A DNA stretch of 64,000 bases, taken from positions 1 through 64,000 of IMG/VR virus record IMGVR_UViG_3300046514_000858. One strand, written 5' to 3'. This DNA comes from a virus. A program made the position numbers and the translations under genes. The notes beneath the pieces are model-generated. The model was not told where the DNA came from. It worked only from the letters and a program-made list of their open reading frames with translations, and did no database searches. Positions 10,738 through 51,212 of the stretch are shown here, piece by piece; position 1 is the stretch's first letter; every line of letters starts with the position of its first letter.

Positions 10738-10750
10738 GTCCAAGTGGGTG
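10738..10750 (+). promoter_or_regulatory. Class III (late) promoter GTCCAAG-N4-YR before the ART cassette
   Basis: GTCCAAG-tggg-TG; same motif precedes most morphogenesis genes. Confidence 0.75.
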
Positions 10751-11505
10751 TGCAGAACGACCGTCCGCCGAGTGATTTCGACCATCCCTTCATCAAGGGT
10801 GGCTCAGGCTCCGGCAACTACGGACATCAGGGTCGCAGCGGTGAGCGAGGCGGCAGCGCGCCCGGCCAGCCCCGATCCGTGGCGGGCAAGGAGTTCAAGG
10901 GCTTCCCTCCGGCCACGAGCCCCCGCAAGGGCAAGGGCGAAAAGGTCGACGGCAAGAAGTTCGGCGCAAAACTTACAGAAGCAGAATCCAAGGCGCTGTC
11001 CGATTACGTGAATCAGGGCAGCAGCAACATCAACGATCATCTTCGCAACGGCAAGGCGTTGTTTCCCGAGTACAACGACCACATTGCCGCGGTCAATTCC
11101 GCCATCGCCAAGGGCGACAACTCCGAGCGTCTGCTCTATCGCGGCGCGCGGATCCAGTCCATGGAATCTCCCGCCTTCGACTACAGCACCGAGCGCCGGG
11201 CGTTCGTGCAGAAGTTCGAGGACCAGATCGGGAAGACCGTCACCATGAAGGGCTTCCAGAGCACGACGACTAGCCCCGAGCTGGCGGCCGAATTCGCTGG
11301 CGTGAACGACAATCCGATCTTCGAGATCCGCGCGAAGGGCGGCGCGCCCATCGGTGATCTGTTCGGCGCGAAGGAGAACGAGGTCGTGCTGCCTCACGGC
11401 GCGAAGTACAAAGTGCTCGACGTTGTGCACAACGTGAAGTTCAACAATCCCAAGTACGGTGATCGCCGGAATCGGTTCACGGTGATTCGACTGGAGATGC
11501 AGTGA
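10750..11505 (+). CDS. Arg-type ADP-ribosyltransferase (VIP2/Alt-like) with Gly-rich virion-targeting-like leader
   Basis: LYRG, FQSTT and ENEVVLP (R-S-ExE); N-terminus FDHPFIK|GGSGSGNYGHQGRSGERGGSAPG; GTG at 10750 preferred because it lies at the motif's YR position. Confidence 0.85.
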   Translation: MQNDRPPSDFDHPFIKGGSGSGNYGHQGRSGERGGSAPGQPRSVAGKEFKGFPPATSPRKGKGEKVDGKKFGAKLTEAESKALSDYVNQGSSNINDHLRNGKALFPEYNDHIAAVNSAIAKGDNSERLLYRGARIQSMESPAFDYSTERRAFVQKFEDQIGKTVTMKGFQSTTTSPELAAEFAGVNDNPIFEIRAKGGAPIGDLFGAKENEVVLPHGAKYKVLDVVHNVKFNNPKYGDRRNRFTVIRLEMQ

Positions 11506-11877: not shown

Positions 11878-12420
11878 CTACCCTGCAGCGCTCACGATCA
11901 GGTCCACTGCCGCGGCAATCACCTCTGTCGCCAGCGACCGATCCACCCCGCCGATCATATCCACCAGCGCCAGAGATTCTATCCCGTACATCTCCCGGAA
12001 TTTCGGATCCGGGTTCGCGAGCATTCCCCGCAGATTGTCGAGCCGATCCAGCATCTTCAGGATCTTCACGGCCGGGCACTGCTGCCCAAGCCGCGCCGTT
12101 TCCATCTTCTTCCGATCCTTCCGCGGCACCACGCCCTTGAGGGCCTTCGTCGAGTTCGTCAGCCCCATCACCAAGACAAGCACATCCATCCCGCAGGCGG
12201 CCTCGATTTCCGCGGGGGTCAATGCCGTGTCCTCCAGTGAATCGTGGAGGAAGGCAGCGGCCACGAGCTCCGGCGTCGCGTCCGCCCGCGCGGCCATCAT
12301 CGCAGCCACCCGCGAGGGATGGACGAAATAGGGGGTTCCTTCAAACTTCCGCATCTGGCCTTCGTGGGCCTTCTGGCCCAGCTCCCGGGCCCGGACCACG
12401 AGGGGATCGCTCATCAGCAC
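11878..12420 (-). CDS. small alarmone hydrolase (Mesh1/SpoT-type HD domain)
   Basis: AHEGQ.RK..G.PY..HP, AA.LHDSLEDT, LV..LT, K..DRLDNLR. Confidence 0.85.
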   Translation of the reverse strand: MLMSDPLVVRARELGQKAHEGQMRKFEGTPYFVHPSRVAAMMAARADATPELVAAAFLHDSLEDTALTPAEIEAACGMDVLVLVMGLTNSTKALKGVVPRKDRKKMETARLGQQCPAVKILKMLDRLDNLRGMLANPDPKFREMYGIESLALVDMIGGVDRSLATEVIAAAVDLIVSAAG

Positions 12421-31990: not shown

Positions 31991-31999
31991 GAGGATTCA

Positions 32000-32272
32000 A
32001 TGAGTCGCTACGACGAGAATTCGCCGCGCGCGCTGATCGCCAAGATCCGCGAGAGCTACAAGCAAAACTGCGTGATCGACATGCGCGGCTTCTGGATGCC
32101 CGCCGACGAGAGCGGCAAAGAGCCGGTGCAGCTCACGGACGAGCAGAAGCTCGCCGTCGAGACGCGTCTCAAGGACAACTTCCGGATCTGGTGGCAGACG
32201 TGGGTCGGCCCGCGGCTCGATATGATCGAAGACCGCGTCGTCAAGAATCGCAAGCCGATTCCTCCGGCCTAG
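32000..32272 (+). CDS. hypothetical protein
   Basis: GGAGG RBS. Confidence 0.55.
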   Translation: MSRYDENSPRALIAKIRESYKQNCVIDMRGFWMPADESGKEPVQLTDEQKLAVETRLKDNFRIWWQTWVGPRLDMIEDRVVKNRKPIPPA

Positions 32273-32545
32273 TCGCGTTCTTAGATGGTATGAACGTCAC
32301 AAGGTGGTACAAGACCTTCGCAGCAATCGCCGGGTGGAAGAAGCGCCGCCTTCATGATCGTGCCGAGTACGTCGGCACCGACTTCCGCTGCTTCGTGGTG
32401 AATCACGACGCGCTGGTGAGCTGGTCGCGCAAGTTCAAGTTCGATTTCTACATCAGCGACGACAAGGTGTCCATCCACGAGCCCGGACTCATCATCCACG
32501 CGGGCTGGATCGTCGCCGTGATCCGCTGGCCGTTCGGCCGTCGCA

Positions 32546-33079
32546 TCAGGTAGGCTTGGCCGCGTAGCGTTCCAGCGCCCCGAGGCTGCGCTTGGCGCGC
32601 TTCAGTCGCGTGGTGAGAGCCTTGATCTTCCGCTCCAGTCCCTTGATCTGCCGCTGGCGCTTCTCGATCTTCTTCGCCCGGATGTCAGCGATCAGCGGAG
32701 GAGGGATCGGCGGGAGCTCGGCTTTCTTCAGAGCGCCATTCATCCAGCCGTTCTTGATTGCCCATGCCCGCAGCTTCCGCTCGATCCGCGCGTGCACTTT
32801 CGAGTGGGGCCGCCCTCCGATCTTCTCGGTGTAGTACCAGTGCGAGAAGAGGTGGATCAGATCACCCCATCCCTTCTCGACGTTGACACGGAACTCGCTT
32901 CCGCGCAGCCACGTATAGCGGTTGCCGGAAGTCTCCGTGATCCGGTAGGGGAATTTGTGGCCGCTGAGATGTCGGTACATCTTCCGGACTGCTCGGGTGG
33001 CCTCGTCGAGGGTCAGTGGAGTGACCGGGTCGACCGGCTTGATCAGGTTCACTTTCTCGTACGCCTGCGCGATGTTCAC
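32546..33079 (-). CDS. hypothetical protein (HxxxH...H, SprT-like) with basic coiled-coil tail
   Basis: LIHLFSH...PHS; AGGAGG RBS; last gene of a minus-strand Class I operon. Confidence 0.55.
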   Translation of the reverse strand: MNIAQAYEKVNLIKPVDPVTPLTLDEATRAVRKMYRHLSGHKFPYRITETSGNRYTWLRGSEFRVNVEKGWGDLIHLFSHWYYTEKIGGRPHSKVHARIERKLRAWAIKNGWMNGALKKAELPPIPPPLIADIRAKKIEKRQRQIKGLERKIKALTTRLKRAKRSLGALERYAAKPT

Positions 33080-33088
33080 GCCGTCCTC

Positions 33089-33409
33089 CTAGAATTTCAA
33101 CTGGCCGTTGATCTTGTCCCGTAGATTCCTCGCAGCCACGAGCCGCCCGCGGGAATCGACGTCGTTGTTATCGCTCGCGATATCGATGATGCTTCCGCAA
33201 ACGGTCTCAGCCAACCACTTCGCATCGCGGTCATTCAACTCCAGCCACGACCGTGTCTCCTCCGCGCGCGCGAGGCGCGCGTACAGGTGCGTCGCATACC
33301 CCAGCGCGCAGGTCTTGTACTGCTCGACGCCCTCGTCTTCGATCCATGCTTCGAGGTCGTTCCACACCGCGCGTTCCTGAGCCCGCGTGACTTTCACCCG
33401 CACCGTCAT
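33089..33409 (-). CDS. hypothetical protein
   Basis: AAGGAG RBS before MTVRVKV. Confidence 0.55.
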   Translation of the reverse strand: MTVRVKVTRAQERAVWNDLEAWIEDEGVEQYKTCALGYATHLYARLARAEETRSWLELNDRDAKWLAETVCGSIIDIASDNNDVDSRGRLVAARNLRDKINGQLKF

Positions 33410-33419
33410 ATCTCTCCTT

Positions 33420-33623
33420 CTAGCTCTGGGCCAGAACCGCCAGTCCGAACACGATGGCCTTGTCGAACGCGTCGTCGTCCAGTTTCTCCAGTTTCTCCCA
33501 CGACTCCGCACTCACGAGGTACCCGTACTTCGGGATCACGCCCGAGGTTTTCGCGAAAATCTTGAAGCCCTTCTTGGTTTGCTGGGCTTTGAAATTCGCC
33601 GTCTCTTTCACCGCAACGCCCAT
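33420..33623 (-). CDS. hypothetical protein
   Basis: Class I promoter at 33687-33662 and GGAAAGGAG RBS. Confidence 0.6.
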   Translation of the reverse strand: MGVAVKETANFKAQQTKKGFKIFAKTSGVIPKYGYLVSAESWEKLEKLDDDAFDKAIVFGLAVLAQS

Positions 33624-33927
33624 GCCGATCTCCTTTCCACACGTACCGATCACGTAATATAGACGACCCACCCCGCCGATCATGACACGAAATCGCGATT
33701 ATCATTTTCTTTGTTATACCCGCCCGGGTGCGGCGTCTTACTGTCGTGATGAGCGAAGGAGGTCGAGTGAGTGTGAAGCGCGGGCCCGGGAAGAAGAGCT
33801 ACTGGCTGACCTGCTGGGCGATGAAGGCAAGCGCGGCTGGCATGCCCATGGAAGAGATCAAAGTGAAGATGGCGGAGATGAAGAAGAAGTCCATCGCCGA
33901 GATCATGGCGTGGACGAAGGAGAACTC

Positions 33928-34248
33928 ATGAAAGCGAAACTGAAGCGCCTCCCGGTGTACCGCTCGGCCCTCGGCGATTCCTCGAACGACGGGATCTCCG
34001 GGAAGGAATCCCACGTCTATCTGATCGAGCTCGACGGCTTGATCCCGCCCCAGATCCCGCTAGAGGCCGTCTTCCGCGCCGAACAGCGCGGTCCGAAGTA
34101 CTTCGCCCTGATTCCCTTCGTGTCGCCCGTCAAGATGTGCGGCCCGATGTTCGGCGGGAACCTCGCCATGGACGAGGATTCCGGCCGGATCTACAAGATC
34201 CACGACCGCTTCGAGACGCCGGAGCTGAATGCACTGTTGAGTTCTTGA
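33928..34248 (+). CDS. conserved-looking phage hypothetical protein
   Basis: D.SN.GIS...GPMFGGN...IHDRFE. Confidence 0.6.
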   Translation: MKAKLKRLPVYRSALGDSSNDGISGKESHVYLIELDGLIPPQIPLEAVFRAEQRGPKYFALIPFVSPVKMCGPMFGGNLAMDEDSGRIYKIHDRFETPELNALLSS

Positions 34249-34331
34249 CGCTTTTTCCTGTCACGGGCGTCGGGGTCGGGCGTCTCAGATACGTGGCGAT
34301 GATGATCGGAAACTGCGGAAAGGAGATCGGT

Positions 34332-34712
34332 ATGAGCGAGCTGAATCTGGTGGCCCTGTTCGGGAAGGCCCACGCGGCGGGGAACGCGGCGGCTGCGGCC
34401 TTGATCCCGGTTCCCATGATCGTCGCGGAGCACGCGAGTCCGCTGGATGACGCCTCCCCGGTGGTCCAGAGCTGGCAGGTGGAAGGCGGGGTGTGCGGCT
34501 TCGCGTGGGTGACGATCTCCCCCGGGACCTCGAAGGCAGCGCGGTTCGCGAAGGAGCACTACGGCGCGCGGAAGGGGTACTACGGCGGAATGGAGCTCCG
34601 GGTGTCCCAGTTCGGGCAGAGCATGCAGAAGAAGGAAGCCTACGCCGGAGCGTTCGCCGCGGTCCTGAGCGCCGCGGGGATCACGGCCTACTCCGGTTCT
34701 CGGATGGACTAA
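34332..34712 (+). CDS. conserved-looking phage hypothetical protein
   Basis: GVCGFAWV...QSM..KEAYA.AFA.VL...GI.A..SR.D. Confidence 0.7.
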   Translation: MSELNLVALFGKAHAAGNAAAAALIPVPMIVAEHASPLDDASPVVQSWQVEGGVCGFAWVTISPGTSKAARFAKEHYGARKGYYGGMELRVSQFGQSMQKKEAYAGAFAAVLSAAGITAYSGSRMD

Positions 34713-34748
34713 GCGCATTTCTTCCGAGATCACGCGTTCTTGTCTGGT

Positions 34749-35210
34749 GTGAAATGTACGCAATGTCCCCGTATCGCGCAATACGATAGGCGACGTTGTC
34801 CTAAGTGTTTGGCAACTTCGCGCGCTTGTGCTAGGGCATATTATGCCGCCAACCCCGAACGTGCTCGTGCTGCGGTTCGAGCCTATCAGGCAACTCACAA
34901 GGCGGCGCTGAGACTCTACAACCGAAAGTGGCGCACCAAGAAATGTCGGGAGTACAATTCTTGGGCGTGCATGATTCAGCGTTGCACAAATTCCAAACAC
35001 CATGCCTTTCACAACTACGGTGGCCGCGGCATTAAGGTCTGCGCGCGCTGGCGTAATTCCTTTGAGCACTTTCTCGCCGACATGGGTCCGCGGCCAAGTC
35101 CGAAGCATTCCATCGACCGCTTCCCCAACAACGACGGCGACTACGAGCCCGGCAACTGTCGCTGGGCTACGGCGAGAGAGCAGGCGCGTAATCAACGAGG
35201 GCGTGTATGA
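34749..35210 (+). CDS. HNH homing endonuclease
   Basis: W..MIQRC...YGGRGIKVC.RW...F..DMG.RP...SIDR..N.G.YEPGNCRWAT..EQ.RN; visibly lower GC. Confidence 0.85.
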   Translation: MKCTQCPRIAQYDRRRCPKCLATSRACARAYYAANPERARAAVRAYQATHKAALRLYNRKWRTKKCREYNSWACMIQRCTNSKHHAFHNYGGRGIKVCARWRNSFEHFLADMGPRPSPKHSIDRFPNNDGDYEPGNCRWATAREQARNQRGRV

Positions 35211-35473
35211 CCATAAAATTTATCGACGTCGACCAGAAAGCCATCGCGGATCGGGACCCGAACCCCATCAACATCCGCATCCGGACGCCGATGCCATCTC
35301 CCCTCGGAGAGTTCGCGTGCCTGCGCGCGCGCGAGGTATTTATCTCCGGCCCCAGTGAGATCCGCTACTGCCCGGTTCATCCCCAGCCGTTCGGTGCGCG
35401 CGTCTGGGTTCAGACCGATTCACCGATCATGTACAAGTCCAGCGAATTATTGGACTGGCAGCGAATCCCGTGA
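35207..35473 (+). CDS. hypothetical protein
   Basis: Coupled start; GPS...Y.P......GARVW. Confidence 0.55.
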   Translation: MTIKFIDVDQKAIADRDPNPINIRIRTPMPSPLGEFACLRAREVFISGPSEIRYCPVHPQPFGARVWVQTDSPIMYKSSELLDWQRIP

Positions 35474-35961
35474 ACTCCACGCTGGCCGCCCCGACCCTCG
35501 ATCTCAAGGTTGAGCCGATCCTGCGACCCGACGGCAAGGCCCGGGCCTACGCCATCAACGGGCGCATGCACACGCTGATCGACCGGGACAACCAGCGCTA
35601 TCTCTACCGCCTCGGGCGTTTCATCGTCAAGGTCGGCGTGCAGAGCAAGATGGAGGCCGCTCGCGCAGCCGGGTCGTGCGCCGGGTCGCCCTACTTCTGG
35701 CCGCTCGTCGGCTCGGGCAAGGTGAACGGCCTCAAGTACGACGACGTCTGGTGGACCGCGCAGGAGATCCTGCCGTTGAAGCGCGCGATCTACACCTACG
35801 ACCGGGACGAGTGGTGCGCGGCCTACCATGTGATCCTCGGGGTGGCCGCCGATCACCACATCTACGATATCGAGCTGGACGAATTCCCGGACGGCCTGAT
35901 GAGGCCGCACAACTGGACCATTTTCCGGGACACCCCGGTCATCTACGACTACGGCATGTAA
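35470..35961 (+). CDS. divergent protein-kinase-like fold protein
   Basis: FIVKV...E...W..QE...RPHNW...VIYDYG. Confidence 0.4.
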   Translation: MNSTLAAPTLDLKVEPILRPDGKARAYAINGRMHTLIDRDNQRYLYRLGRFIVKVGVQSKMEAARAAGSCAGSPYFWPLVGSGKVNGLKYDDVWWTAQEILPLKRAIYTYDRDEWCAAYHVILGVAADHHIYDIELDEFPDGLMRPHNWTIFRDTPVIYDYGM

Positions 35962-36249
35962 GGAGGACAACATGGGACAGCAGAAGAAAGACGCGCCCGT
36001 TCAGAAAACCCCCAAGAAGGGCAAGAGTGTGCACACGGTGCACTCCTCGGTGAAGTACGCCATCCGGCACGGCTACACGCCGGGATCGAGCCCGCGTCGC
36101 ACGGGCAAGCGCTGGAATTCCGGCCGTCGCGAGCGCATGCTCAACGCCCCGACGAAATCGGCGGGCCTGCCGAAGGTGCACTGACCGCCGCTTTTTCTGT
36201 TACGCCGCGCCTCCATGGTCGTCTCTATTACGTGATGAATGGAGGAAGC

Positions 36250-36720
36250 ATGGACGCCAAGGCAGCCGGTCCGATCAAGCAGGTCTGGGAAGGCGCGGTC
36301 GGGACGGCCAAGCGCTGTCGCGCGGTTCTAAAAGCCAAGTTCCCCGGCACCAAGTTCTCGGTCCGCTCCAAGACGTACTCCGGCGGATCCTCGGTTTACA
36401 TCGACTGGACCGATGGTCCCCTGACGGAAGCTGTCGACAAGCTCGTGAAACCCTTCGAGGGCGCGTCCTTCGACGGCATGGTCGACCTGATGAGCTACGT
36501 CGACGTGGTCGTGGTGGATGAGTCCGGCGAGCTGGTTCAGATCCACGGCGCGAACTACATCCTGACCCAGCGTTCCCGCTCGGCTGAGCGCGAGAAGCTG
36601 ATCGAGGCGGAGCTCCGGCAGTACTGGTGCGAGAAGGAAGCAGAGGAAGCGATCAAGTTCCACGACTGCCGCCTGTACGCGGAGTCGGAAGCTCGGATGA
36701 TGAAGGAGGGCAAGCTGTGA
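36250..36720 (+). CDS. LPD29-like (large polyvalent protein domain) protein
   Basis: LKAKFPGTKFSVRSKTYSGGSS..I.WTDGP...FDGM.D. Confidence 0.75.
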   Translation: MDAKAAGPIKQVWEGAVGTAKRCRAVLKAKFPGTKFSVRSKTYSGGSSVYIDWTDGPLTEAVDKLVKPFEGASFDGMVDLMSYVDVVVVDESGELVQIHGANYILTQRSRSAEREKLIEAELRQYWCEKEAEEAIKFHDCRLYAESEARMMKEGKL

Positions 36721-37052
36721 TGGATCAAGCGAAGATGGTCGGCGTGCTGGTGCTGGCTCGGGTCGCCGCGGAGGACTCCGTGCGTCCGTTCTCGGACGGC
36801 GGGACCTGCAATATGGATTCCTGCGTGATCGTCGCCCCGCCGGAGGTGAACATGGCGCTGGCGTGCGCCGCGGCCGGGCTGGGCTCCTACTACCGCGGAG
36901 GCAGCAAGAAGCGCGACATGTGGGCCGGGAAGTGGTTTCTGCACGCGCCCAAGGGCGGGCAGGGCGACGCCCGCACGAAGCAGGCCGAGGCGATGGACAA
37001 GGTCATGAAGGAGTACGGCATCGAGTCGACGGTGTACTACCAGATGGATTGA
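36720..37052 (+). CDS. hypothetical protein
   Basis: DGGTCNMD...QG..RT..AEAM...YY.MD. Confidence 0.6.
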   Translation: MDQAKMVGVLVLARVAAEDSVRPFSDGGTCNMDSCVIVAPPEVNMALACAAAGLGSYYRGGSKKRDMWAGKWFLHAPKGGQGDARTKQAEAMDKVMKEYGIESTVYYQMD

Positions 37053-37068
37053 TGGTCCAAGAGGGTGC

Positions 37069-37818
37069 ATGTTGAAAGCGTCTCGTCCCAGTTCTCCCTT
37101 CGACGACCCCTTCCGTAAGGGCAACGCGAACTCCGGCAACCATGGCCATTCCGGTCGCCCGGGCCAAGTCGGAGGCAGCGCCCCCGGCGGCGGGCAGAAC
37201 GCGGCGGTCAATCCCGTGATCCGGGCCCAGACCGAGCACGTCATGGCGCAGGCCCGGGCGATGGACAACAAGATCACGCCTCTGATCGCCATGACCGTCG
37301 ACACGAGCGGTGGCCAGATGATCGGTCTCGAACATCGCATCAAGACCTCGGCCGACCGCATCTCCCAGAAGATCGCCGAGAAGATGGCCACCGAGAATCT
37401 CACGCCTGAGCAGGCGCGTAACAACATCTACGACTCCCTCCGCTTCACGGCATCGTTCAGTCCGGACCAGTACACCGCCGGAGTGGAGAAGCTGTTGTCC
37501 AACCTCAAGGCGCAGGGTATCGAAGCAGCCCCGGGCAAGGACAAGAATTATTGGCCCCCGCCGCCCGGTGTCTACCACGGCCTCAACTACGTGATGACCG
37601 ACAAGAGCGGCTTCAAGTTCGAGCTCCAGTTCCACACGCCCGAGAGCTTTGCCATCAAGCAGCAGAACCACACCGTCTACGAAGCATTCCGGAACGCGGG
37701 AGGCAGCAAGGAGCAGCGCCTCCAGCTCTGGAACGAGATGAACCAGCGCTGGGCTGGCGTGACCGTGCCGCCGGGCGTCAAGCGGCTCGGCCGGTCGGTG
37801 AATCAGGAACAGGCATGA
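37069..37818 (+). CDS. RelA/SpoT-family toxic nucleotide pyrophosphokinase (Apk2/Tas1-like) with Gly-rich leader
   Basis: GLEHRIKT...KI, DSLRFT, KNYW, YHGLN, FELQFHTPES, H.VYE..R; N-terminus FDDPFRK|GNANSGNHGHSGRPGQVGGSAPG; GTCCAAG at 37055. Confidence 0.85.
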   Translation: MLKASRPSSPFDDPFRKGNANSGNHGHSGRPGQVGGSAPGGGQNAAVNPVIRAQTEHVMAQARAMDNKITPLIAMTVDTSGGQMIGLEHRIKTSADRISQKIAEKMATENLTPEQARNNIYDSLRFTASFSPDQYTAGVEKLLSNLKAQGIEAAPGKDKNYWPPPPGVYHGLNYVMTDKSGFKFELQFHTPESFAIKQQNHTVYEAFRNAGGSKEQRLQLWNEMNQRWAGVTVPPGVKRLGRSVNQEQA

Positions 37819-37828
37819 GGAGGATGGT

Positions 37829-38059
37829 ATGACGAAGATCCGCTACTTCGAGTTGCAGCCCGCCACGGAACCCAAGCCGACCGGGATCCTGCGCCTCACG
37901 ATCACGGACACCCAGCTCACGCTGGAGCACTACGATCCCAAGTCGGCCACATGGATCGATGACCCCAAGGCCCTCGACTTCCTCAACGGCGACGACGCCG
38001 ACGCCGAGGAGATCCCGTCGGGCGAGGCCCTCAAGTTGATCTTGCAGCTCACCGTCTGA
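37829..38059 (+). CDS. cognate immunity protein (IapK-like)
   Basis: 76 aa, acidic; RYF...LRL...E.Y...W...G....EEI...EA..LI; own GAGGAGG RBS directly after the toxin. Confidence 0.65.
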   Translation: MTKIRYFELQPATEPKPTGILRLTITDTQLTLEHYDPKSATWIDDPKALDFLNGDDADAEEIPSGEALKLILQLTV

Positions 38060-38089
38060 TTTGTAGCATCTGGCGGCGTTCCTACAAGT

Positions 38090-38767
38090 ATGAGGATGCT
38101 GCTGGCCCTCCTATTCCTGATCCCGCAGGACTGCGAACAAGAGCACCCCAACCGCGACGGCCTGAGTACGGACGATCTCGTCGAGGCCCTCGAAGCGGCC
38201 GATATAGACGCGGCCAACTGGCGGGCGTCGTACCATCGCATTGACTTAGAGAACGACGAGATCATAGCGCGCATGTCGCTCGTCTCCGCCGAGTGGGAGT
38301 TCATGGTCAATGAGTGCGAGCGCGCGGGACAGGCCCACGTCCTGAACACTCTTGAGCGCGTGCTGGTGCAGCGCTTTATCGAACCTCTCGATCTCTGGAT
38401 GTCGAATCCCCATGTGACGGGCCATCCCTTCCCTCGCTTCGTCGACGGCGAGTGCTGGTACGCCATCGTGATCCAGCCTCTGGACGCACTGAAGAGCGAT
38501 CCGGTCTGGCTGAAGTTCCCGCTGGAGACGAAGAAATACGGCAGCGCCCTCGGTTATGGAGACGATAAGAACGAGAGCATCCTCCAGCTCCACTACAAGC
38601 GCACGATGCGCAAGAGCATCTTGGATTCGCTGGAGCACCATCTCGTGCTGCTATTGGACCAGCCCGAGTGCGTCACCACACTCATCACCGGAACGCCGCA
38701 CCTCTACCGCCTGACCTTCCGGGAGAGCAACATAGAGCATCTCCGCAAGGAAGATCGGATCTATTGA
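38090..38767 (+). CDS. signal-peptide hypothetical protein
   Basis: MRMLLALLFLIPQD; leaderless Class II start. Confidence 0.6.
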   Translation: MRMLLALLFLIPQDCEQEHPNRDGLSTDDLVEALEAADIDAANWRASYHRIDLENDEIIARMSLVSAEWEFMVNECERAGQAHVLNTLERVLVQRFIEPLDLWMSNPHVTGHPFPRFVDGECWYAIVIQPLDALKSDPVWLKFPLETKKYGSALGYGDDKNESILQLHYKRTMRKSILDSLEHHLVLLLDQPECVTTLITGTPHLYRLTFRESNIEHLRKEDRIY

Positions 38768-39219
38768 TGGGCGCGCACATCCTTGGCGATTTCCGCACGC
38801 AGCCGCACTGCGAATTGCCCGAGTCCTACTTCACCGGCCGAGACTGCTGGGTCGACTGTCGCGCGCCCGACATGTTGCACATCTCCCGGGACTGCAACAT
38901 CGGCTGGGAGGCCCGGCTGGTCTGTCAGTCCCACAACCCGATGCCCGGCAAGTTCGGCGACGTGACCGCGCGCTCGATTATCATTCGGCCCAAGGCGTTT
39001 ATCGCCGGGTTCGCGACGCTCTACAACTGCGAGATCGGCGAGGGGTCTGTCGTGGCGCTCGGGGCCGTGGTGAGAAGTCGGATCGTGCCGCCGTGGGTGA
39101 TCGTCGAGGGGAATCCGGCGCGCATCGTGAGCAGCTTCGACCATGTGCTCGGGAAGTGGGTCGAGGTGCCGGGGGAATCAGGACTTGGGGAGAACCTTCC
39201 AATGCGTCATCGGCGGTAG
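38767..39219 (+). CDS. left-handed beta-helix O-acetyltransferase
   Basis: EIGEGSVVALGAVV...VPP..IVEGNPARIV. Confidence 0.8.
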   Translation: MGAHILGDFRTQPHCELPESYFTGRDCWVDCRAPDMLHISRDCNIGWEARLVCQSHNPMPGKFGDVTARSIIIRPKAFIAGFATLYNCEIGEGSVVALGAVVRSRIVPPWVIVEGNPARIVSSFDHVLGKWVEVPGESGLGENLPMRHRR

Positions 39220-39729
39220 GACCTCGCCATCGGGCACGACGATCCCGTAGCCCGCGACCGGCACGGGCACCGAGTAGTCGGGCACGATCACCCGGCCGTA
39301 CTGCTGGAGCACCGCGGGCGGGACCTTGTGGCATCCGGCCTGCCCGCAATCCAAGTCGACGTTGTTGACGTAGAGGATCCCTTCCGGGAAACGATTGTGG
39401 ACGATAGCCAGCTCTTCGCCGAGCGGTCTCTCCGATCCCCACGTCGTGTCGAAGTAAAACACCGACGGCCGGGGCGCGTCGACCTCGCGCAGGTATTCAA
39501 CGGAGCTGGCGACCTTGAGCTGCAGCCACGGGTACCGGCCCCGCGCGATCTCCAGCGTCTCGGCGTTGATGTCGCATCCCATCCCGATCTTGCCGGGCAC
39601 GAGCTCCGAGAAGTACCCGACGGTCTCGCCCTCGTGCACGCCGACCTCGACCCAACCCTTGATCTGGAACCGGCCGATCATCCAACCCGTGATGCACATG
39701 CGCTGGAAATTGTCTTGATGAGTGGTCAC
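39178..39729 (-). CDS. class I SAM methyltransferase-like protein (glycan-associated type)
   Basis: VEVGVHEGET...GCDIN...SS..YL...FYFD; late motif on the minus strand at 39741-39735. Confidence 0.6.
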   Translation of the reverse strand: MTTHQDNFQRMCITGWMIGRFQIKGWVEVGVHEGETVGYFSELVPGKIGMGCDINAETLEIARGRYPWLQLKVASSVEYLREVDAPRPSVFYFDTTWGSERPLGEELAIVHNRFPEGILYVNNVDLDCGQAGCHKVPPAVLQQYGRVIVPDYSVPVPVAGYGIVVPDGEVLPPMTHWKVLPKS

Positions 39730-39734
39730 GTAAT

Positions 39735-39750
39735 CTTGGACCAGTCCAAG
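39735..39750. promoter_or_regulatory. back-to-back divergent late promoters
   Basis: CTTGGAC-CA-GTCCAAG palindrome between divergent genes. Confidence 0.75.
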
Positions 39751-39770
39751 AGAATATCAAGGGAATAATT

Positions 39771-40376
39771 ATGATCGACAAAGGACTGCTGTGGGACGAC
39801 ACCAAGATGATGGGATTCTATCCCGTGATCGATCCCGTGTACGGCCCGGACTATTGGGCCAAGTACGAGGGCTACGGCAAGACGCCCATGGGCAAGGCCA
39901 TCACCGCGTGCCGGGCGTGGTTCGTGGGCCAGTGCCTGAAGCCGGACGAGCAGCTCCTTGACGTCGGCATCGGATCGGGCGACTTCGTTCGGTCCCGTCC
40001 TAACACGTTCGGGCAGGACGTGAACCCTGTCGCGCTGGCGTGGTTGCAGGGCCTCGACCTGCTCGGCAACTACGACGAGATCCCCAACTACAGTTTTTGG
40101 GACACGCTCGAACACATCTTGGACGCGAAGGGCGTCGTCGCCAAGATCAAGAATTACTGCTTCGTCTCGCTCCCGATCTTCCGCGACCGCGAGCATGTCC
40201 TGAAGAGCAAGCACTTCCGGCCCGACGAGCATTACTGGTATTGGACTGAAGTGGGTCTGATCAACTGGTTCGATGAGCAGGGCTTCGCTCTGCGCAGGAT
40301 GACTTCGATTGAGTCAGTGCTCGGCCGCGAAGACATCATGAGCTACGCCTTCCAGCGCTACGGCGTTCGGTCGTGA
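39771..40376 (+). CDS. class I SAM-dependent methyltransferase
   Basis: LLDVGIGSG.F...G.DVN...FWDTLEHI...EHYWYW. Confidence 0.8.
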   Translation: MIDKGLLWDDTKMMGFYPVIDPVYGPDYWAKYEGYGKTPMGKAITACRAWFVGQCLKPDEQLLDVGIGSGDFVRSRPNTFGQDVNPVALAWLQGLDLLGNYDEIPNYSFWDTLEHILDAKGVVAKIKNYCFVSLPIFRDREHVLKSKHFRPDEHYWYWTEVGLINWFDEQGFALRRMTSIESVLGREDIMSYAFQRYGVRS

Positions 40377-41074
40377 ACGCAGCCGTCCTTGTCCCTAGCT
40401 ACGACAAGTACGCGGACGTCTGGCCCATCGCCGAGACGTGCTTCTCCCGCTTCTGGCCCGACCGCTCCATCCCCATGTACTGGATGACGAATGGGCTTCC
40501 GGTCCCGCGCATGGCCACGGGCGTGTGCGTGCCCGCGCGCGCGAGGCAAGAGTGGGGTGAGGGCATTGCTCAGGCGCTGGACTCCGTGCCCGAGGATCTG
40601 GTGCTCTTCTGGATCGAGGAGGTCTTGCTTCTCAGTCCCGTCCCCAATCAGCGGATCATGGAAGCCATTCGTCTGATGAACGAGGATCCCACCATTCAGG
40701 TCGTCAACGTCAACCGGTACTACTACGCCGCCGCTGCGGGCGATGGCTTCATTGACGCGCCCGACAAGATGTTCGACGTGATGGCGATGCCCGCGATCTA
40801 CCGGAAGTCCGTGCTGAAGAGGCTGGTGTTAGAGAACCCGGACCCGCCGGAGTTCGAGCGCCGCTCGGCGATCAGCTTCCACAAGCTCTACCCCGACGGC
40901 CGAGTCCTGATCCCGGGCTCGAAGATGTTTCGCTTCTGCGACAACCTCATGATCATCGGCCGCTGGCGGAAGTGTGCGCTGAATCACTTGCAGGAGTTGC
41001 AGATCCCGGTCGACGCGTCCATCCGCGGCGTCGCCGATGACGACTGTCGCTTCATGAACGGGACGGATCAATAA
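40373..41074 (+). CDS. GT-A-fold glycosyltransferase-like protein
   Basis: VLVPSYDKY.DVW...F..FWPD...W...AL..V....VL...EE. Confidence 0.6.
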   Translation: MNAAVLVPSYDKYADVWPIAETCFSRFWPDRSIPMYWMTNGLPVPRMATGVCVPARARQEWGEGIAQALDSVPEDLVLFWIEEVLLLSPVPNQRIMEAIRLMNEDPTIQVVNVNRYYYAAAAGDGFIDAPDKMFDVMAMPAIYRKSVLKRLVLENPDPPEFERRSAISFHKLYPDGRVLIPGSKMFRFCDNLMIIGRWRKCALNHLQELQIPVDASIRGVADDDCRFMNGTDQ

Positions 41075-41075
41075 T

Positions 41076-41164
41076 TGGTCGCAGGTGGAGGAGTCGAACC
41101 TCTGCCCACCGCCGGAGACTTGGCCTTGGGACACGGGAGCTACCCGTCCTCCGGATCACCCGCG
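41076..41164 (-). tRNA. non-canonical tRNA-like RNA (89 nt, encoded CCA)
   Basis: CGCGGGT/ACCTGCG acceptor stem, discriminator A plus CCA, GAGG-TTCGACT-CCTC T-arm; D and anticodon arms irregular (central CAA). Confidence 0.55.
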
Positions 41165-41180
41165 ATTTGTTGTGCACCGT

Positions 41181-41344
41181 ATAGCTCTTCCGTCTATGCC
41201 CAGTAAAATTTACGACACTTGGGGTGCATCCGCACAAGGCCACATTTGCTGGCGACCCACTTCCATCCCTCCCGGAGTCTGTTTCGACACAGCCAGCAGA
41301 GCGGCAGCCTTCGTTTTCTTTTAGACTTCTTCATAGCGTTCAAT
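41181..41344 (-). repeat. 164-bp repeat, copy 2; encodes the 46-aa peptide at 41334-41194
   Basis: Reverse complement matches 15250-15413. Confidence 0.92.
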
Positions 41345-41675
41345 CGTGTGTCTGCTTACAAGCAGGGCACGGGTAACCGGGAACGTAGGCCGCCGCCTCG
41401 CACTTCGGGGTTGGACGAATCCGCTTTTCTGTTGCCGTCAGAATATCTTCCATGCTGTTCGCGGCCTGCCGGATCGTGAACCAGTGGCGTTTTAGTTCGT
41501 CAATCTGCAGGTTTGCTGTGCGCAATTCGAGGGTTCGCGTATTGGCGAGATCCCACCCCTCCTTCGCGTGCTTCTTCATCAACTCCAATTCGGCCTTGTT
41601 GCAGTAGCTTTCCGGGTGTGGCTCATGCGGTAGAGACTTGCTCCCGCAAATCTTGCACGTTCTAAAGTCGCTCAT
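41340..41675 (-). CDS. Cys-containing hypothetical protein
   Basis: MSDFRTCKICG...CPAC; coupled to the cupin gene stop. Confidence 0.5.
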   Translation of the reverse strand: MSDFRTCKICGSKSLPHEPHPESYCNKAELELMKKHAKEGWDLANTRTLELRTANLQIDELKRHWFTIRQAANSMEDILTATEKRIRPTPKCEAAAYVPGYPCPACKQTHD

Positions 41676-42145
41676 GCTTCGATCTCGTAGCGGTCGTGCC
41701 GCACCCAGCCCTTCTTGGTCCAGAACCCCCAGCTCCGGCGGATCGCGCCGCAGAAGACTAGAGTCACGATGGGGCGGCTGCTGACCCAAGTGATGGCGTG
41801 CCTGTCTTCGGCGCGCTTCCAGTTCACCCACCGGACGTGCCGCGGCTCACGGTCGGCATCACAGTCGTCGCACCGGCACGGGCCGCAGCAGGGTTCGGTC
41901 GGCACGTCCTCGACGTAGCTGCCCCAGAGCACGAGGGACAGGAACGACCACGGATGGTCGTGCAGGTCCCGCTGCTGGTCCGGGCGGTAGATCAGGTGCA
42001 GCTTGATGGAGAACCACGGGGTGAGGAGAATGTTCAGGCGGCGCATGTACACGCTGCGCCCGTCGCCGATGATCTTCCAGTACCACCAGCCCCACTTGCG
42101 AGCGGCCTTGGGGTCGGTCAGCTCGTCGCCTTCCAGCTTCTCCAT
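41672..42145 (-). CDS. cupin-fold phage protein
   Basis: LH.I...D..RDLHDHPW.F.S..L.G.Y.E...H...WGF. Confidence 0.75.
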   Translation of the reverse strand: MEKLEGDELTDPKAARKWGWWYWKIIGDGRSVYMRRLNILLTPWFSIKLHLIYRPDQQRDLHDHPWSFLSLVLWGSYVEDVPTEPCCGPCRCDDCDADREPRHVRWVNWKRAEDRHAITWVSSRPIVTLVFCGAIRRSWGFWTKKGWVRHDRYEIEA

Positions 42146-42222
42146 GTCTACAAGAACGCGCGCATTTTCCTGTAATGCGCATGGGCGTGGGTCGTCTTAT
42201 AGGCGTGATGAAAGGAGCCGAC

Positions 42223-42441
42223 ATGACCTGCGAAAACTGTGGGAAGCGCACGATCACCGCGACGTTCGTCTACTGTTGCGCCCGCGCGACTTTCCTGCCC
42301 ATCGCCTGCTCGGCCAAGTGCCAGAAGGCCCTCGGCGGTGTCGACCCGACCAAGGTCGCCGACTGCGGTGAACACTGTGCCTGCGGGGACTGCGTCGACT
42401 GTGATCTGGCGGCCCGCGACAAGGCCGCGCTCAAGAGCTAG
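42223..42441 (+). CDS. Cys-rich small protein
   Basis: Class I promoter at 42171 plus AAGGAG RBS. Confidence 0.55.
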   Translation: MTCENCGKRTITATFVYCCARATFLPIACSAKCQKALGGVDPTKVADCGEHCACGDCVDCDLAARDKAALKS

Positions 42442-42450
42442 GAGACTGCG

Positions 42451-43053
42451 ATGAAACAGTGGGATCTCCACCGGACCGAGCTACTTCAAGATCGCGAGTG
42501 GTCGAAGCTGAAGCGCTTCCTCGACGACGAGTCGGATCTCGCCGAGTTGAATGGCAACCGCACTGCCATCCAGAACCGCGTGATCTGTTACGTAGCGGTC
42601 TGGGCCGGGCTCCGGCGCGCCGAGATCGCGAGCCTCGACCTCGACGACTTGTACCTGACGAACGACTCTCCCTTCCTCGTCGTGAAGGACGGCAAGGGCG
42701 GCAAGCGCCGGGAGGTCATGATCTCCCCGATCCTCCGGGCCATCCTTAAGAAGTTCATTCGCGGCATGGAACCGGGCCCCGTCTTCCGGCCCCAGCGCGG
42801 CGAGCGGTACACGGGCAACGGCCTCTGGCGCGTGTGGGCGGTCGCCTGCGCGGGCGCGGGGATCCTGCCTCGGTCGATCCACAAGGCCCGTCACTTCTAC
42901 GGTCAGAAGCAGTACGAGGCGACCAACGATCTCCGCTTCGTCCAGAAGCAACTCGGCCACTCCCGGATCGTGACCACTCAGGTCTACGTCGAGATTTCCA
43001 ATACGAAGGCGGTGGAGAATCTGGCGGGCCTCGACAAGGTGCTGCGGGCTTAG
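42451..43053 (+). CDS. tyrosine recombinase (catalytic domain only)
   Basis: GLRRAEI, GKGGK.R, H..RH, LGHS...TQVY. Confidence 0.9.
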   Translation: MKQWDLHRTELLQDREWSKLKRFLDDESDLAELNGNRTAIQNRVICYVAVWAGLRRAEIASLDLDDLYLTNDSPFLVVKDGKGGKRREVMISPILRAILKKFIRGMEPGPVFRPQRGERYTGNGLWRVWAVACAGAGILPRSIHKARHFYGQKQYEATNDLRFVQKQLGHSRIVTTQVYVEISNTKAVENLAGLDKVLRA

Positions 43054-43337
43054 GCTATTGCGGCCTGTGGGGTGCGGTTACCTTTTATCTTATTACATTT
43101 AGCGCAGAGAACCTGCAACTTCCCTTCCTTCTCCTCCTGCTCGTAGCGCCTCACGCGGCCGAGCTGGGAGAACGCCCGGAGGTACCAGTCCCGCGGCTTC
43201 TTGTGGTCGACTTCGAGCTTGTTCTTCTTCGAGCCCTTGGTGCCGCAGTGGACGCACTTCCGACCGAGGCGATCAATGATCGCTTCCCGGCGGACCTGCG
43301 CCCGCAACGCCCGCTGTCGTGTCTCTAGGTTGCCCAC
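43050..43337 (-). CDS. HNH endonuclease
   Basis: CVHCG...LEVDH...LC.KCN..K. Confidence 0.8.
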   Translation of the reverse strand: MGNLETRQRALRAQVRREAIIDRLGRKCVHCGTKGSKKNKLEVDHKKPRDWYLRAFSQLGRVRRYEQEEKEGKLQVLCAKCNKIKGNRTPQAAIA

Positions 43338-43614: not shown

Positions 43615-43652
43615 ATTTACAGGAACGCTTGTGTGCGCGCGTTCTTATTGGC

Positions 43653-50459: not shown

Positions 50460-51212
50460 ATGCGCAACATCAAGCTGTCGAGCGTTTCCTTCACCATCTC
50501 CAAGGCCGCGAAGGCCCCCAAGGCACCCCTGAGCGCCCCGTCCGGCGCGCCCACGGATGTCGTCGATCCGAACGATCCCGGCGACATGGATCAGTGCTGC
50601 GACGACCACGCCCCCACCTCCCCCGTCATGAAGGGCATGTCCCACGTCGAAGCGTACGGCGTGCGCAAGCTCTGCAAGGCCGCGAAGGGCGAGCATTACC
50701 CCTTCAGCCAGTGCCTGATCGACCGCCAGAAGGACGGCTACTCGCAGGAGTCCGCCTCCAAAATCTGCGGTGCCATCAAGGCCGGGACCGTCGTGCACAA
50801 GAACGAGTTCATCGTCACCCCGAACGAGGATGGCTCGGTCAACTGGAAGCTCAACGTGGAGTTCACCAAGGTCGACGCCGAAGAGCGGATCGTCAAGGGC
50901 GTCGTCTACGAGCCCGACGTCGTCGATTCGCAGGGCGACAGCGCCTCCGCCGACGAGATCCGCAAGGCGTGTCACGGCTTCATGGCCGACTCGAAGACGC
51001 TCGGCGTGATGCACAAGGAGACCGCCGGACCCCGCGCGTCCATCGTCGAGAACTACATCACCGACAACGACCAACGAATCGGCAACCAGTCCGTCAAAAA
51101 GGGAACGTGGATGATGGCCGCGAAGGTCCACGACGACGAGCTGTGGAACGCGATCAAGAAGGGCGACATCACCGGTTTCTCCATGGGCGGGCGCGCGGAA
51201 AACGCGGACTGA
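50460..51212 (+). CDS. XkdF-like prohead serine protease with N-terminal extension
   Basis: ERIVKGVVYEPD..DSQGD...EI.KA...MH...VE.Y...KGTW...W..IK.G..TGFSMGG. Confidence 0.88.
   Translation: MRNIKLSSVSFTISKAAKAPKAPLSAPSGAPTDVVDPNDPGDMDQCCDDHAPTSPVMKGMSHVEAYGVRKLCKAAKGEHYPFSQCLIDRQKDGYSQESASKICGAIKAGTVVHKNEFIVTPNEDGSVNWKLNVEFTKVDAEERIVKGVVYEPDVVDSQGDSASADEIRKACHGFMADSKTLGVMHKETAGPRASIVENYITDNDQRIGNQSVKKGTWMMAAKVHDDELWNAIKKGDITGFSMGGRAENAD

Follow-up and report, generated by a model that had tools for sequence, protein, structure and literature searches.

A stand-alone alarmone synthetase behind a conserved glycine-rich leader, with an IapK/Tis1-like partner: a predicted phage toxin-immunity pair

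Results

A synthetase gene and a small downstream ORF among accessory genes

The window, i.e., the whole stretch of 64,000 nucleotides analysed here (positions 1 to 64,000 of the IMG/VR virus record IMGVR_UViG_3300046514_000858), carries a stand-alone small alarmone synthetase gene followed, after a gap of 10 nt, by a 76-aa ORF whose GGAGGA Shine-Dalgarno sequence overlaps the synthetase stop codon (Table 1). The phage is known solely from metagenomes of soil and rhizosphere. An original prediction made from the letters alone had described the small ORF exactly where it lies; the start that it gave for the synthetase gene, position 37055, turned out to be that of a GTCCAAG motif 7 nt 5' of the ATG, and the coding sequence begins at 37069. 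Contigs covering the stretch had the same sequence as the window throughout, without variation, and a Megablast search of positions 30000-45000 against annotated phages returned no match.

The pair is surrounded by small accessory genes, outside the head block and at a distance of 9 kb from the head genes. Two genes upstream of the synthetase is a stand-alone LPD29 protein, a domain that otherwise occurs in polyvalent proteins. As had been proposed, the MuF domain of this phage is uncoupled from the synthetase: it is fused to the portal in an 814-aa protein that ends ~55 residues past the MuF domain and is toxin-free. The phage also encodes a prohead protease, a short tyrosine recombinase of 200 aa, a stand-alone ADP-ribosyltransferase and, 25 kb from the pair, a small HD_4 hydrolase; no ADP-ribosylhydrolase, macro domain or serine recombinase was found in the phage.

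Table 1. Positions in the window of the gene pair, its leader elements and the other genes discussed in the text.
Feature	Position	Strand	Remarks
GTCCAAG motif and 7-nt spacer before the synthetase ATG	37055..37068	+	near-identical 14-mer (GGTCCAAGWGGGTG) 5' of the ADP-ribosyltransferase gene
Small alarmone synthetase gene, stand-alone	37069..37818	+	ATG start; 249 aa; leader, then SYNTH domain
Leader box 1, R6-K17	37084..37119	+	pattern RPxxxFDxxFxK; shared with the phage's ADP-ribosyltransferase and the closest stand-alone homologues
Gly-rich tag, G18-G42	37120..37194	+	consensus GGPGSGNxGHxGRPGxVGGSAPGGG; module spacer of phage polyvalent proteins
SYNTH (RelA/SpoT synthetase) domain, residues 47-249	37207..37815	+	key residues D122, R125, K157, N173, E185, Q187
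Immunity-family ORF, 76 aa	37829..38059	+	IapK/Tis1-like; GGAGGA ribosome-binding site
ADP-ribosyltransferase, stand-alone	10750..11505	+	same two-part leader; ADPrib_exo_Tox, E 4e-17
Small alarmone hydrolase, HD_4 domain	11878..12420	-	possible enzymatic counterpart of the synthetase, 25 kb away
Stand-alone LPD29 protein	36232..36720	+	two genes upstream of the synthetase; PF18847, E 4e-21
Portal-MuF fusion, 814 aa	46710..49154	+	Phage_portal 106-422, Phage_Mu_F 661-758; no toxin domain
Prohead serine protease, Peptidase_S78_2 / XkdF type	50460..51212	+	candidate processor of tagged cargo

The synthetase belongs with the toxin domains of phage MuF proteins

The AlphaFold2 model of the synthetase (mean pLDDT 82.8) exceeds a pLDDT of 90 over most of residues 50-245 and falls below 50 over residues 1-44; its sole domain, residues 47-249, has the SYNTH fold, a central antiparallel sheet flanked by helices, and residues 1-46 form a disordered leader. 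All four synthetase motifs are present, as the original prediction held, and its claim that hydrolase and regulatory domains are lacking agrees with Pfam, which finds no HD, TGS, ACT or other domain, as well as with the combined Pfam and NCBIfam result of no further domain. The Pfam RelA_SpoT model itself stayed below threshold, and the only other signal was a sub-threshold DUF4810. The catalytic and ATP-binding residues have been named for SaEAS and Apk1 (PMC12691689); those of SaEAS (D121, R124, K154, N169, E182 and Q184) align to D122, R125, K157, N173, E185 and Q187 of the phage enzyme, and D122, R125, N173, E185 and Q187 are invariant in 17 homologues.

Structure and sequence searches agree on the placement. 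Foldseek ranks SaEAS first (8VX3, TM 0.83 on the target, rmsd 2.2 Å) and Tas1 second (6OX6), within 33 matches at E<=1e-3 that also include RelP, RelQ and Rel catalytic domains, and the sole phmmer match in the PDB is again SaEAS 8VX3 (E 1.3e-13), with the catalytic residues aligned. The C-terminus of the NCBIfam XopAD model (positions 1940-2128) matches residues 51-239 at E 1.5e-33, and PHROGs matches, starting at residue 46-57, fall on the C-terminal ends of 'head morphogenesis' families. By tblastn, 92-94% of the domain is 32-33% identical to MuF proteins of pneumococcal phages (E 3e-21), and the SYNTH domain is 30-31% identical to the C-terminal ends of MuF proteins from Mannheimia and Pasteurella phages. 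These results uphold the earlier assignment to the Apk2/Tas1 toxin class, with the C-termini of MuF proteins as relatives and SaEAS, then Tas1/Apk1, nearest in fold. The enzyme also has motif variants of the Apk type, namely RFT (RYT in relatives), GxN and xHT. We are highly confident that the product is a synthetase toxin.

With the same set of motif variants, some relatives produce only (p)ppApp, some produce both alarmones and some only (p)ppGpp (PMC12226406, PMC12691689); SaEAS makes both, and two relatives make (p)ppGpp alone (PMC12691689). Judged from its sequence, the phage enzyme may make either alarmone or both.

Short partial segments aside, metagenome and genome scans returned only relatives of 27-37% identity; the closest homologues (P0002-P0009) are 41-55% identical. 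A quick domain tree places the synthetase in a clade of its own (SH-aLRT 99), whose nine members all stand alone, and synthetase domains switch frequently among stand-alone, MuF-fused, protease-fused and polyvalent forms. In other viral contigs the synthetases with a homologous partner gene are fused to MuF in five cases and to an S78 prohead protease in three, and the same synthetase clade ends or sits inside polyvalent multi-enzyme proteins of 1,000-2,900 aa.

The 76-aa protein belongs to a family that follows synthetase genes

The 76-aa ORF has no family in Pfam, PHROG or NCBIfam and is present as a single copy in the genome, and it clusters with 31 small ORFs located just 3' of synthetase genes. 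A profile HMM of this family gave 139 matches in 2.73 Mb of 239 loci, and 133 of these are encoded immediately 3' of a synthetase, on its strand; among the 133 are those of 57 of 75 metagenome loci and of 29 of 101 genome loci that had no part in building the model. Profile comparison by hhalign links the family to the ORF after the MuF gene of phage IPP60 (probability 96%, E 2.5e-9) and to that after the MuF gene of a Mannheimia phage (probability 93.5%). The suggestion that the small ORF is an immunity gene is supported by a profile that matches proteins in the position of IapK and by a family that nearly always stands right after a synthetase.

The structure model of the protein is confident (pLDDT 89). 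Foldseek found no significant match for it, and a VIA search of 48,161 PDB chains placed Tis1 (6OX6_B) at rank 3 with 64 of 76 residues aligned, a weak likeness at Z 4.7 in a search whose scores for this model reach only about 5. The sole PDB-sequence matches of the small-ORF profile were kelch repeats, which we set aside as they arise through a short 'ERYDxxxxxW' hairpin motif and reflect motif-level likeness, not homology. The 76-aa protein is in our judgement a likely inhibitor of the synthetase; by analogy with IapK and Tis1, it would most likely hold the enzyme inactive by covering the acceptor-nucleotide site.

A two-part leader shared with an ADP-ribosyltransferase and with polyvalent proteins

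The glycine-rich leader to which the original prediction had drawn attention is a real conserved element, common to a second toxin-type enzyme and to polyvalent proteins; its role in delivery we infer, and head loading is a prediction from sequence. It has two parts, box 1, whose last residue K17 directly precedes the tag, and the tag itself, which in the form GGxGSGxxGHxGRxGxxGGS (residues 18-42) stands directly before the enzyme module. There are only two copies of the leader in the ~94-kb (93.7-kb) genome, on the synthetase and on the ADP-ribosyltransferase. Both parts are kept in the stand-alone homologues P0003, P0004 and P0009, which are only 41-49% identical to the phage synthetase; the closest homologue (P0002, 55% identity) has a different motif in place of the leader.

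A profile of the tag matches 6,240 representative proteins at E<=1e-3. Individual proteins contain 3-10 copies of the tag, placed between modules that include ART, Zeta toxin, 2H phosphoesterase and ParB; one protein has it ahead of Ntox50, and another has it after MuF-PT-HINT. The residue just before the tag, which is K in both tagged proteins of this phage, agrees within proteins at 0.92 (vs 0.51 when shuffled), and the two positions preceding it at just 0.51-0.53; such agreement fits a lineage-specific recognition or cut site. Since this glycine-rich peptide heads enzyme modules in thousands of phage proteins, it may be a head-loading label. Whether as label or as processing site, a part for the tag in head loading or processing is a tentative proposal, to which we lean slightly less than we lean away. 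The broader idea, in which the tag works in general as a portable signal for both address and release, loading unrelated enzymes into heads and marking the site of release by the head protease, is conceivable to much the same degree. If this holds, injected toxins would be interchangeable as free tagged genes, polyvalent strings, or fusions to MuF or protease, and a phage with two tagged genes would be a minimal system for its proof.

A search of the literature found no paper describing the tag; neither the paper on polyvalent proteins (PMC5512222) nor those on MuF toxins mention a linker or glycine-rich motif. The 39-aa leader and a polyvalent ORF with five tags had no tblastn match in annotated phages, for which the low-complexity filter is possibly responsible; because this filter may hide the tag, the null result says nothing about cultured phages. 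For the tag-bearing ORFs of three further loci, Pfam returned one weak 2H match and one DRAT match, and no head-protein anchors.

The tag could also be what remained when the gene was cut out of a polyvalent one. In the alternative to which this belongs, the pair would be an intracellular toxin-antitoxin, abortive-infection or superinfection-exclusion module of the lysogen, as toxSAS pairs and mycobacteriophage Phrann gp29/gp30 are thought to be; the synthetase would never be packaged, and its leader would be left over from polyvalent or MuF-fused ancestry. The layout of a toxin gene followed by a small inhibitor gene with overlapping translation signals agrees with such a module, as do the position of the synthetase gene outside the head block and the tyrosine recombinase, with which lysogeny is possible; furthermore, relic linkers are to be expected where synthetase domains switch form as often as in the tree. 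We nevertheless consider it unlikely. Both parts of the leader are conserved in distant homologues and on an unrelated enzyme, which argues for selection and not decay, and tag-bearing stand-alone synthetases occur in at least two places of the tree, albeit a quick one. The recombinase is a mere 200 aa; CapRel-type toxSAS proteins appear distant in the Foldseek search (7ZTB, E 1.2e-3, TM 0.48), and PADLOC assigns none of the four proteins submitted to a defence family.

The presence of the tag before Ntox50, a classic polymorphic-toxin domain, and after the pre-toxin HINT domain, with a gene order as in polymorphic toxin loci, raises the question of interbacterial competition. Such a role was reportedly first proposed for MuF polymorphic toxins. 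It is raised as a possibility for Apk2 and Bxa (PMC10083569, PMC11699363). Here, a toxin released by lysis or borne on the particle would kill non-immune neighbours, and the immunity gene would protect lysogens. We hold this to be improbable as the purpose of the pair: lysogeny is only a possibility for this phage; no secretion signal is apparent on inspection of the N-terminus, where residues 1-46 are rich in Gly, Ser and Pro and have no hydrophobic core; and a cytoplasmic target requires entry into the target cell. Because such a target again implies delivery by the particle, the competition reading overlaps with the one we favour, in which the synthetase is loaded into the head.

An upstream motif common to head and tail genes

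The 14-mer made up of GTCCAAG and its spacer has exact matches only at 10737 and 37054, and with up to two mismatches five matches vs 0.79 expected. GTCCAAG itself is found 27 times in the genome vs ~12.7 expected, with 24 of the 27 copies on the + strand, mostly before head and tail genes; the left 39 kb hold just four copies, two of them directly before the two tagged genes. This distribution suggests that GTCCAAG is a candidate late promoter.

The motif also bears on the possibility that the synthetase is a host-takeover enzyme made in the infected cell rather than borne on the particle, with the 76-aa protein as a timing brake and the hydrolase resetting the alarmone. The genome has a single HD_4 gene, and no HD gene adjoins the pair. 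The best matches of the HD_4 protein are to the hydrolase domains of Lmo0812, MESH1 and Rel (E 1e-14 to 3e-16), vs only E 9e-5 for the (p)ppApp hydrolase Aph1 (7SMG), i.e., by sequence it resembles (p)ppGpp hydrolases more than Aph1. A synthetase and a hydrolase of Mesh1/Rel type on opposite strands, in different gene blocks, would suit timed control, and the neighbours of the pair are small accessory genes, including the stand-alone LPD29. An enzyme made in place, however, has no need of a conserved disordered leader or of stoichiometric inhibition by an IapK-like protein; relatives of the synthetase are fused to MuF and to the S78 protease, both of which enter procapsids; and the upstream GTCCAAG is common to head and tail genes. 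Host takeover from within is therefore, in our view, quite unlikely.

Discussion

We interpret the pair as a toxin and its immunity protein, namely a stand-alone synthetase of the Apk2/SaEAS/XopAD-C clade with a partner of the IapK/Tis1 family, the synthetase being directed into the head by its leader; for this whole statement, taken jointly, we would put the probability at roughly 55%. In the mechanism we envisage, the pair would be transcribed with the late genes and the inhibitor would protect the producing cell, while the tag would steer the synthetase, and likewise the tagged ADP-ribosyltransferase, into the procapsid, with possible cleavage at the K17-G18 bond by the S78 prohead protease. 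The synthetase, without its inhibitor, would then enter the next host along with the DNA and convert ATP and an acceptor (ATP/ADP or GTP/GDP) to (p)ppApp and/or (p)ppGpp, arresting host metabolism; the phage's own alarmone hydrolase could later turn the effect off.

The predicted toxin-immunity pair is of a known kind; what is new is that it stands alone behind a conserved glycine-rich peptide and is not fused to MuF. Among its closest described counterparts is Apk2-IapK-Aph1 of MuF polymorphic toxins, known from prophages of S. pneumoniae, M. haemolytica, P. multocida and B. caccae (PMC10083569, PMC12226406). Downstream of the MuF gene, the pneumococcal and Pasteurellaceae phages retrieved here have first a 69-72-aa gene and next one of the HD type, in agreement with the published apk2-iapK-aph1 order (PMC12226406). 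Both systems are phage-encoded and share a homologous synthetase domain (32-33% identity, E about 1e-20) with a homologous small gene directly 3'. However, Apk2 has an N-terminal MuF domain, whereas the synthetase studied here carries the Gly-rich tag instead and is without MuF because that domain is fused to the portal. The pair also lacks an adjacent hydrolase, the sole one in the phage being of the Mesh1/Rel type, 25 kb off and on the other strand; Aph1 is itself variably present in the Apk2 family. Whether Apk2- and Bxa-like phage toxins are carried in the particle and injected, and for what purpose, has been left open in the literature (PMC10083569, PMC11699363).

Among bacterial enzymes, SaEAS of Streptomyces albidoflavus (8VX3, PMC12691689) is the best match among solved proteins in both sequence and structure, with identical catalytic residues, but it bears a Sec signal peptide, acts extracellularly and comes without an immunity gene, whereas the phage synthetase is without a hydrophobic signal sequence and has one. 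Indeed, the Sec signal or secretion domain of the exported synthetases SaEAS, VpEAS and AaEAS is missing here, as judged by inspection and by Pfam, which finds no secretion-associated domain. The Apk1/Tas1-Tis1 pair of P. aeruginosa (6OX6) supplies the second-best enzyme fold match and, in Tis1, a protein of the same length as the 76-aa protein, which the structure search placed third; in contrast to the phage enzyme, Tas1 is delivered by a PAAR domain and the T6SS, and identity is only ~18% for the enzyme and 14% for the immunity protein.

The idea that a short peptide brings an enzyme into the phage head has a precedent in T4, in which Alt, an ADP-ribosyltransferase, and the internal proteins are loaded into the head for injection by a short N-terminal peptide that the prohead protease removes. 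Alt has been listed among virion-transferred proteins (PMC5512222). The capsid targeting sequence of T4 and the tag have no sequence similarity; it is the putative role that they would share. Polyvalent proteins with RelA/SpoT modules (Iyer et al. 2017, PMC5512222) are linked to the phage by the same synthetase clade, the tag as module spacer and the LPD29 domain nearby; unlike in those proteins, each module of this phage is encoded separately and has a start codon and a copy of the tag to itself.

In this phage an Apk2-type pair occurs apart from MuF, and its synthetase begins with a short conserved peptide that a second toxin-type enzyme carries as well. If this peptide is a loading or release signal, packaging could be tested with a reporter on the 46 leader residues, the building and shuffling of polyvalent proteins would be explained, and injected proteins would become predictable from sequence alone. 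On a cautious reading, the IapK/Tis1 immunity family and the Apk2/EAS synthetase clade are extended to stand-alone genes of soil phages.

We set aside 84 'Ralstonia phage' matches, which come from predicted-prophage records that are all identical and in which the match lies at the very edge; we suspect them to be a fragment of a XopAD/skwp effector. The XopAD/skwp type III effectors themselves (Xanthomonas, Ralstonia; NF041399) exceed 2,000 aa, contain SKWP repeats and are exported by the T3SS, and they share with the phage synthetase only their last domain, the one that matches residues 51-239.

Layout of the gene pair

The synthetase and the small ORF behind it most likely form a known toxin-immunity pair, and what is new is its layout, a stand-alone synthetase headed by a Gly-rich tag. 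The pair lies in a phage of 62% G+C from soil and rhizosphere samples (source record of 93,745 bp with direct terminal repeats, the window being its first 64 kb), and an identical copy of the window stretch occurs in two more metagenome runs (soil, rhizosphere). Both ORFs of the original prediction, placed at 37055-38059, are present, but the coding sequence opens at the ATG; 37055 marks a GTCCAAG motif that stands 7 nt ahead of it. The GGAGGA ribosome-binding site of the small ORF overlaps the synthetase stop codon, and since a promoter-like element directly follows the small ORF, the pair is apparently the last in its transcription unit. Modules usually found within polyvalent proteins seem to be separate genes here, as with the LPD29 and PHROG 23592 neighbours. 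The short tyrosine recombinase might serve either for integration or for resolving dimers.

Features of the phage genome considered here, in window positions
Feature	Position	Strand	Remarks
Stand-alone ADP-ribosyltransferase (ART)	10750-11505	+	ADPrib_exo_Tox, E 4e-17; same two-part leader as synthetase
Small alarmone hydrolase	11878-12420	-	HD_4, 52.7 bits; in minus-strand gene block; sole one in phage
LPD29 (stand-alone) and PHROG 23592 proteins	36232-37052	+	Just upstream of synthetase; translational coupling apparent
Synthetase ORF	37069-37818	+	249 residues
Small ORF	37829-38059	+	76 residues; 10-nt gap from synthetase ORF
Promoter-like ATTTG-N13-CGTTCCT	38060-38089		Directly after small ORF, ahead of ATG at 38090; resembles a promoter class noted elsewhere in the genome
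Tyrosine recombinase, short	42451-43053	+	200 aa; Phage_integrase, 73.5 bits
S78 protease gene	50460-51212		

Assignment of the synthetase to the Apk2/EAS clade

The Pfam RelA_SpoT model stays below threshold on the synthetase; phmmer against all PDB sequences returned a sole protein, SaEAS (8VX3; E 1.3e-13, residues 43-240), the exported alarmone synthetase of Streptomyces albidoflavus, whose catalytic and ATP-binding residues (named in PMC12691689) have aligned counterparts in D122, R125, K157, N173, E185 and Q187. The AlphaFold2 model (17 homologues, mean pLDDT 82.8) holds one SYNTH domain from residue 47, with residues 1-44 disordered, bearing out the original claim of complete synthetase motifs without a hydrolase or regulatory domain. 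Foldseek placed 8VX3 first (TM 0.83 on target, rmsd 2.2 A), then Tas1/Apk1 (6OX6), followed by RelP, RelQ and Rel catalytic domains, with CapRel far down. NCBIfam also gives a match to the XopAD/skwp type III effector model, in its final domain (E 1.5e-33), and in PHROGs three "head morphogenesis / minor head" families match by their C-terminal ends. In a tblastn search of 50,697 phage records the synthetase matches MuF proteins at their C-terminal ends, with 32-33% identity for S. pneumoniae phages and ~30% for Mannheimia and Pasteurella phages; the gene order in these phages (portal, MuF-toxin, 69-72-aa gene, HD gene) agrees with the published apk2-iapK-aph1 layout (PMC12226406; PMC10083569). 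Separately, 84 "Ralstonia phage" records are identical predicted prophages with a synthetase-domain match at their very edge (166-663 or 34806-35303), which we suspect to be an XopAD/skwp effector fragment at the prophage border.

Because the phmmer, residue, model, Foldseek, NCBIfam, PHROGs and tblastn results agree, the synthetase is a stand-alone member of the Apk2/EAS clade, and its assignment to the same toxin class as Apk2 holds in view of the pneumococcal identities and the two leading structural matches. We put the probability that it is a synthetase toxin at roughly 0.9. Relatives sharing its motif variants make either (p)ppApp or (p)ppGpp alone, or the two together (PMC12226406; PMC12691689), so the sequence does not tell which alarmone it would make.

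The small ORF as an IapK/Tis1-family gene

Across 80 viral contigs encoding a relative of the synthetase, an ORF of 63-104 aa lies -26 to +90 nt behind most synthetase genes, and the small ORF clusters with 31 of these (single-linkage), giving alignment A2. An HMM built on A2 and run over six frames of 239 synthetase loci (2.73 Mb) found 139 matches, 133 of them directly downstream of the synthetase on the same strand, including 57 of 75 metagenome loci and 29 of 101 genome loci independent of model building. Many Streptomyces synthetase loci are without an A2-type gene, in agreement with the report of Sec-type EAS genes without immunity genes. In profile comparisons A2 matches the IapK-position ORFs of phage IPP60 (probability 96.2%, E 2.5e-9, full length) and of a Mannheimia phage (93.5%), in line with the predicted small immunity gene of the IapK kind.

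The 76-aa protein is modelled with good confidence (pLDDT 89). Foldseek gave no match to the model; an independent search of 48,161 PDB chains placed Tis1 (6OX6_B, 76 residues), the immunity protein bound to Tas1, at rank 3 (Z 4.7), a match weak alone and consistent with the other immunity-family evidence. Given the synthetase-linked position, the profile matches to IapK, the Tis1 fold match and the Tis1-like nature of Apk2 immunity proteins (PMC10083569), we conclude that the product belongs to the IapK/Tis1 family; it is probably an inhibitor of the synthetase. What these results show directly is the fold, the catalytic residues and that both genes are homologous to MuF-linked pairs known from experiment.

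A two-part leader shared with an ADP-ribosyltransferase

Compared with its own genome, the synthetase has a second match at 10759-10884, covering residues 5-46 only, at the start of the ART gene. The shared leader comprises a box, RPxxxFDxxFxK, and the Gly-rich tag (G18-G42 in the synthetase; general consensus GGPGSGNxGHxGRPGxVGGSAPGGG), and a regular-expression search in six frames of the 93.7-kb genome found the motif nowhere outside these two genes. No ADP-ribosylhydrolase or macro domain was found in the phage genome. The Gly-rich leader originally noted on the synthetase is part of a conserved unit, both parts being retained in stand-alone homologues of just 41-49% identity. That the pair is a toxin-antitoxin or exclusion module, never packaged, whose leader is a relic, we consider unlikely. 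The closest homologue, P0002 (55% identity), has a "ESKHPRDENGRW" motif where the tag would be, which suggests that different short leader motifs are interchangeable at one position.

Upstream, the 14-mer GGTCCAAGWGGGTG has exact matches only ahead of the two tagged genes. Its GTCCAAG core occurs 27 times in the whole genome against ~12.7 expected, with 24 copies on the + strand and only four in the left 39 kb; it lies mostly a few bases ahead of head and tail gene starts and is followed by RRRRTAG-like bases (e.g., 49173, 50425, 51246, 54557, 56043). The motif may be a late promoter or leaderless-start element, and its placement suggests late co-expression. A takeover enzyme produced within the infected cell is a rather improbable account of the synthetase.

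The tag in other proteins

The tag recurs 3-7 times within long proteins, always between modules. One protein has it directly ahead of an Ntox50 toxin domain, and in a different one it follows MuF and a pre-toxin HINT domain; several neighbouring ORFs of other viral contigs carry it at residue 30-47. A tag profile (38 columns, 21 copies) run against 1.84 billion proteins matched 6,240 representative proteins at E<=1e-3, of which 990 reach E<=1e-10; a single protein holds up to 10 copies. ART, Zeta toxin, 2H phosphoesterase and ParB_N are among the modules of these proteins, as is usual for polyvalent proteins (PMC5512222). What the tag is, how widely it occurs and that the two genes share the leader are direct observations. 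We did not find the tag as a letter string in the literature, nor is a linker discussed in the two most relevant papers (PMC5512222 and one on MuF toxins); tblastn of annotated phages found no cultured phage with the tag, which the low-complexity filter may mask.

Among 116 proteins with at least three tags (468 tags; P0048-P0192), the residue immediately ahead of the tag agrees within a protein in 92% of cases, where shuffling gives 51%, and its identity differs from one protein to another (K, L, R, A, N, F). For the two positions preceding it, agreement within proteins is only 51-53%, so recent duplication does not account for the constancy. A lineage-specific recognition or cut site would do so. 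In both tagged proteins of this phage the residue is Lys.

Links to the phage head and a proposed mechanism

Elsewhere, synthetases paired with the small-ORF family are fused to MuF (contigs L027, L059, L074, L077 and L052) or to an XkdF-type S78 prohead protease (L019:5818-7392, L025:3855-4964, L075:5832-8561), a fusion of which we found no mention in the cited literature; others form the ends of polyvalent proteins of 1,000-2,900 aa. In this phage, as first proposed, MuF forms the C-terminal portion of the 814-aa portal protein and is toxin-free. The likely capsid protein maturation site, just ahead of the Pfam capsid domain, would likewise come after a Lys (VAK|A); we infer a likeness to the Lys before the tag. 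A role of the tag in head loading or processing is possible, and we put it forward tentatively.

In the mechanism that we propose, the pair would be expressed late, and the 76-aa protein would cover the acceptor site of the synthetase, protecting the producing cell. The tag would take the synthetase and the tagged ART into the procapsid, and the S78 protease may cleave after Lys17. The synthetase would then enter the next cell together with the DNA and produce (p)ppApp and/or (p)ppGpp there, an alarmone effect that the phage hydrolase may stop. That hydrolase resembles Lmo0812, MESH1 and Rel hydrolase domains most closely and is distant from Aph1, which hydrolyses (p)ppApp. A use as a competition toxin, overlapping this delivery mechanism, seems quite improbable.

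Comparison with known systems

The pair would work like Apk2-IapK, but MuF on the same chain, the defining feature of Apk2, is absent from this synthetase, and no Aph1 adjoins the pair as it does in Apk2-IapK-Aph1. SaEAS is structurally alike, whereas here there is no export signal and an immunity gene is present. In a quick version of a domain tree, the synthetase belongs to a clade whose nine members are all stand-alone (SH-aLRT 99), and a second stand-alone, tag-bearing group adjoins the Apk2 sequences; it therefore seems that the tagged stand-alone form had more than one origin.
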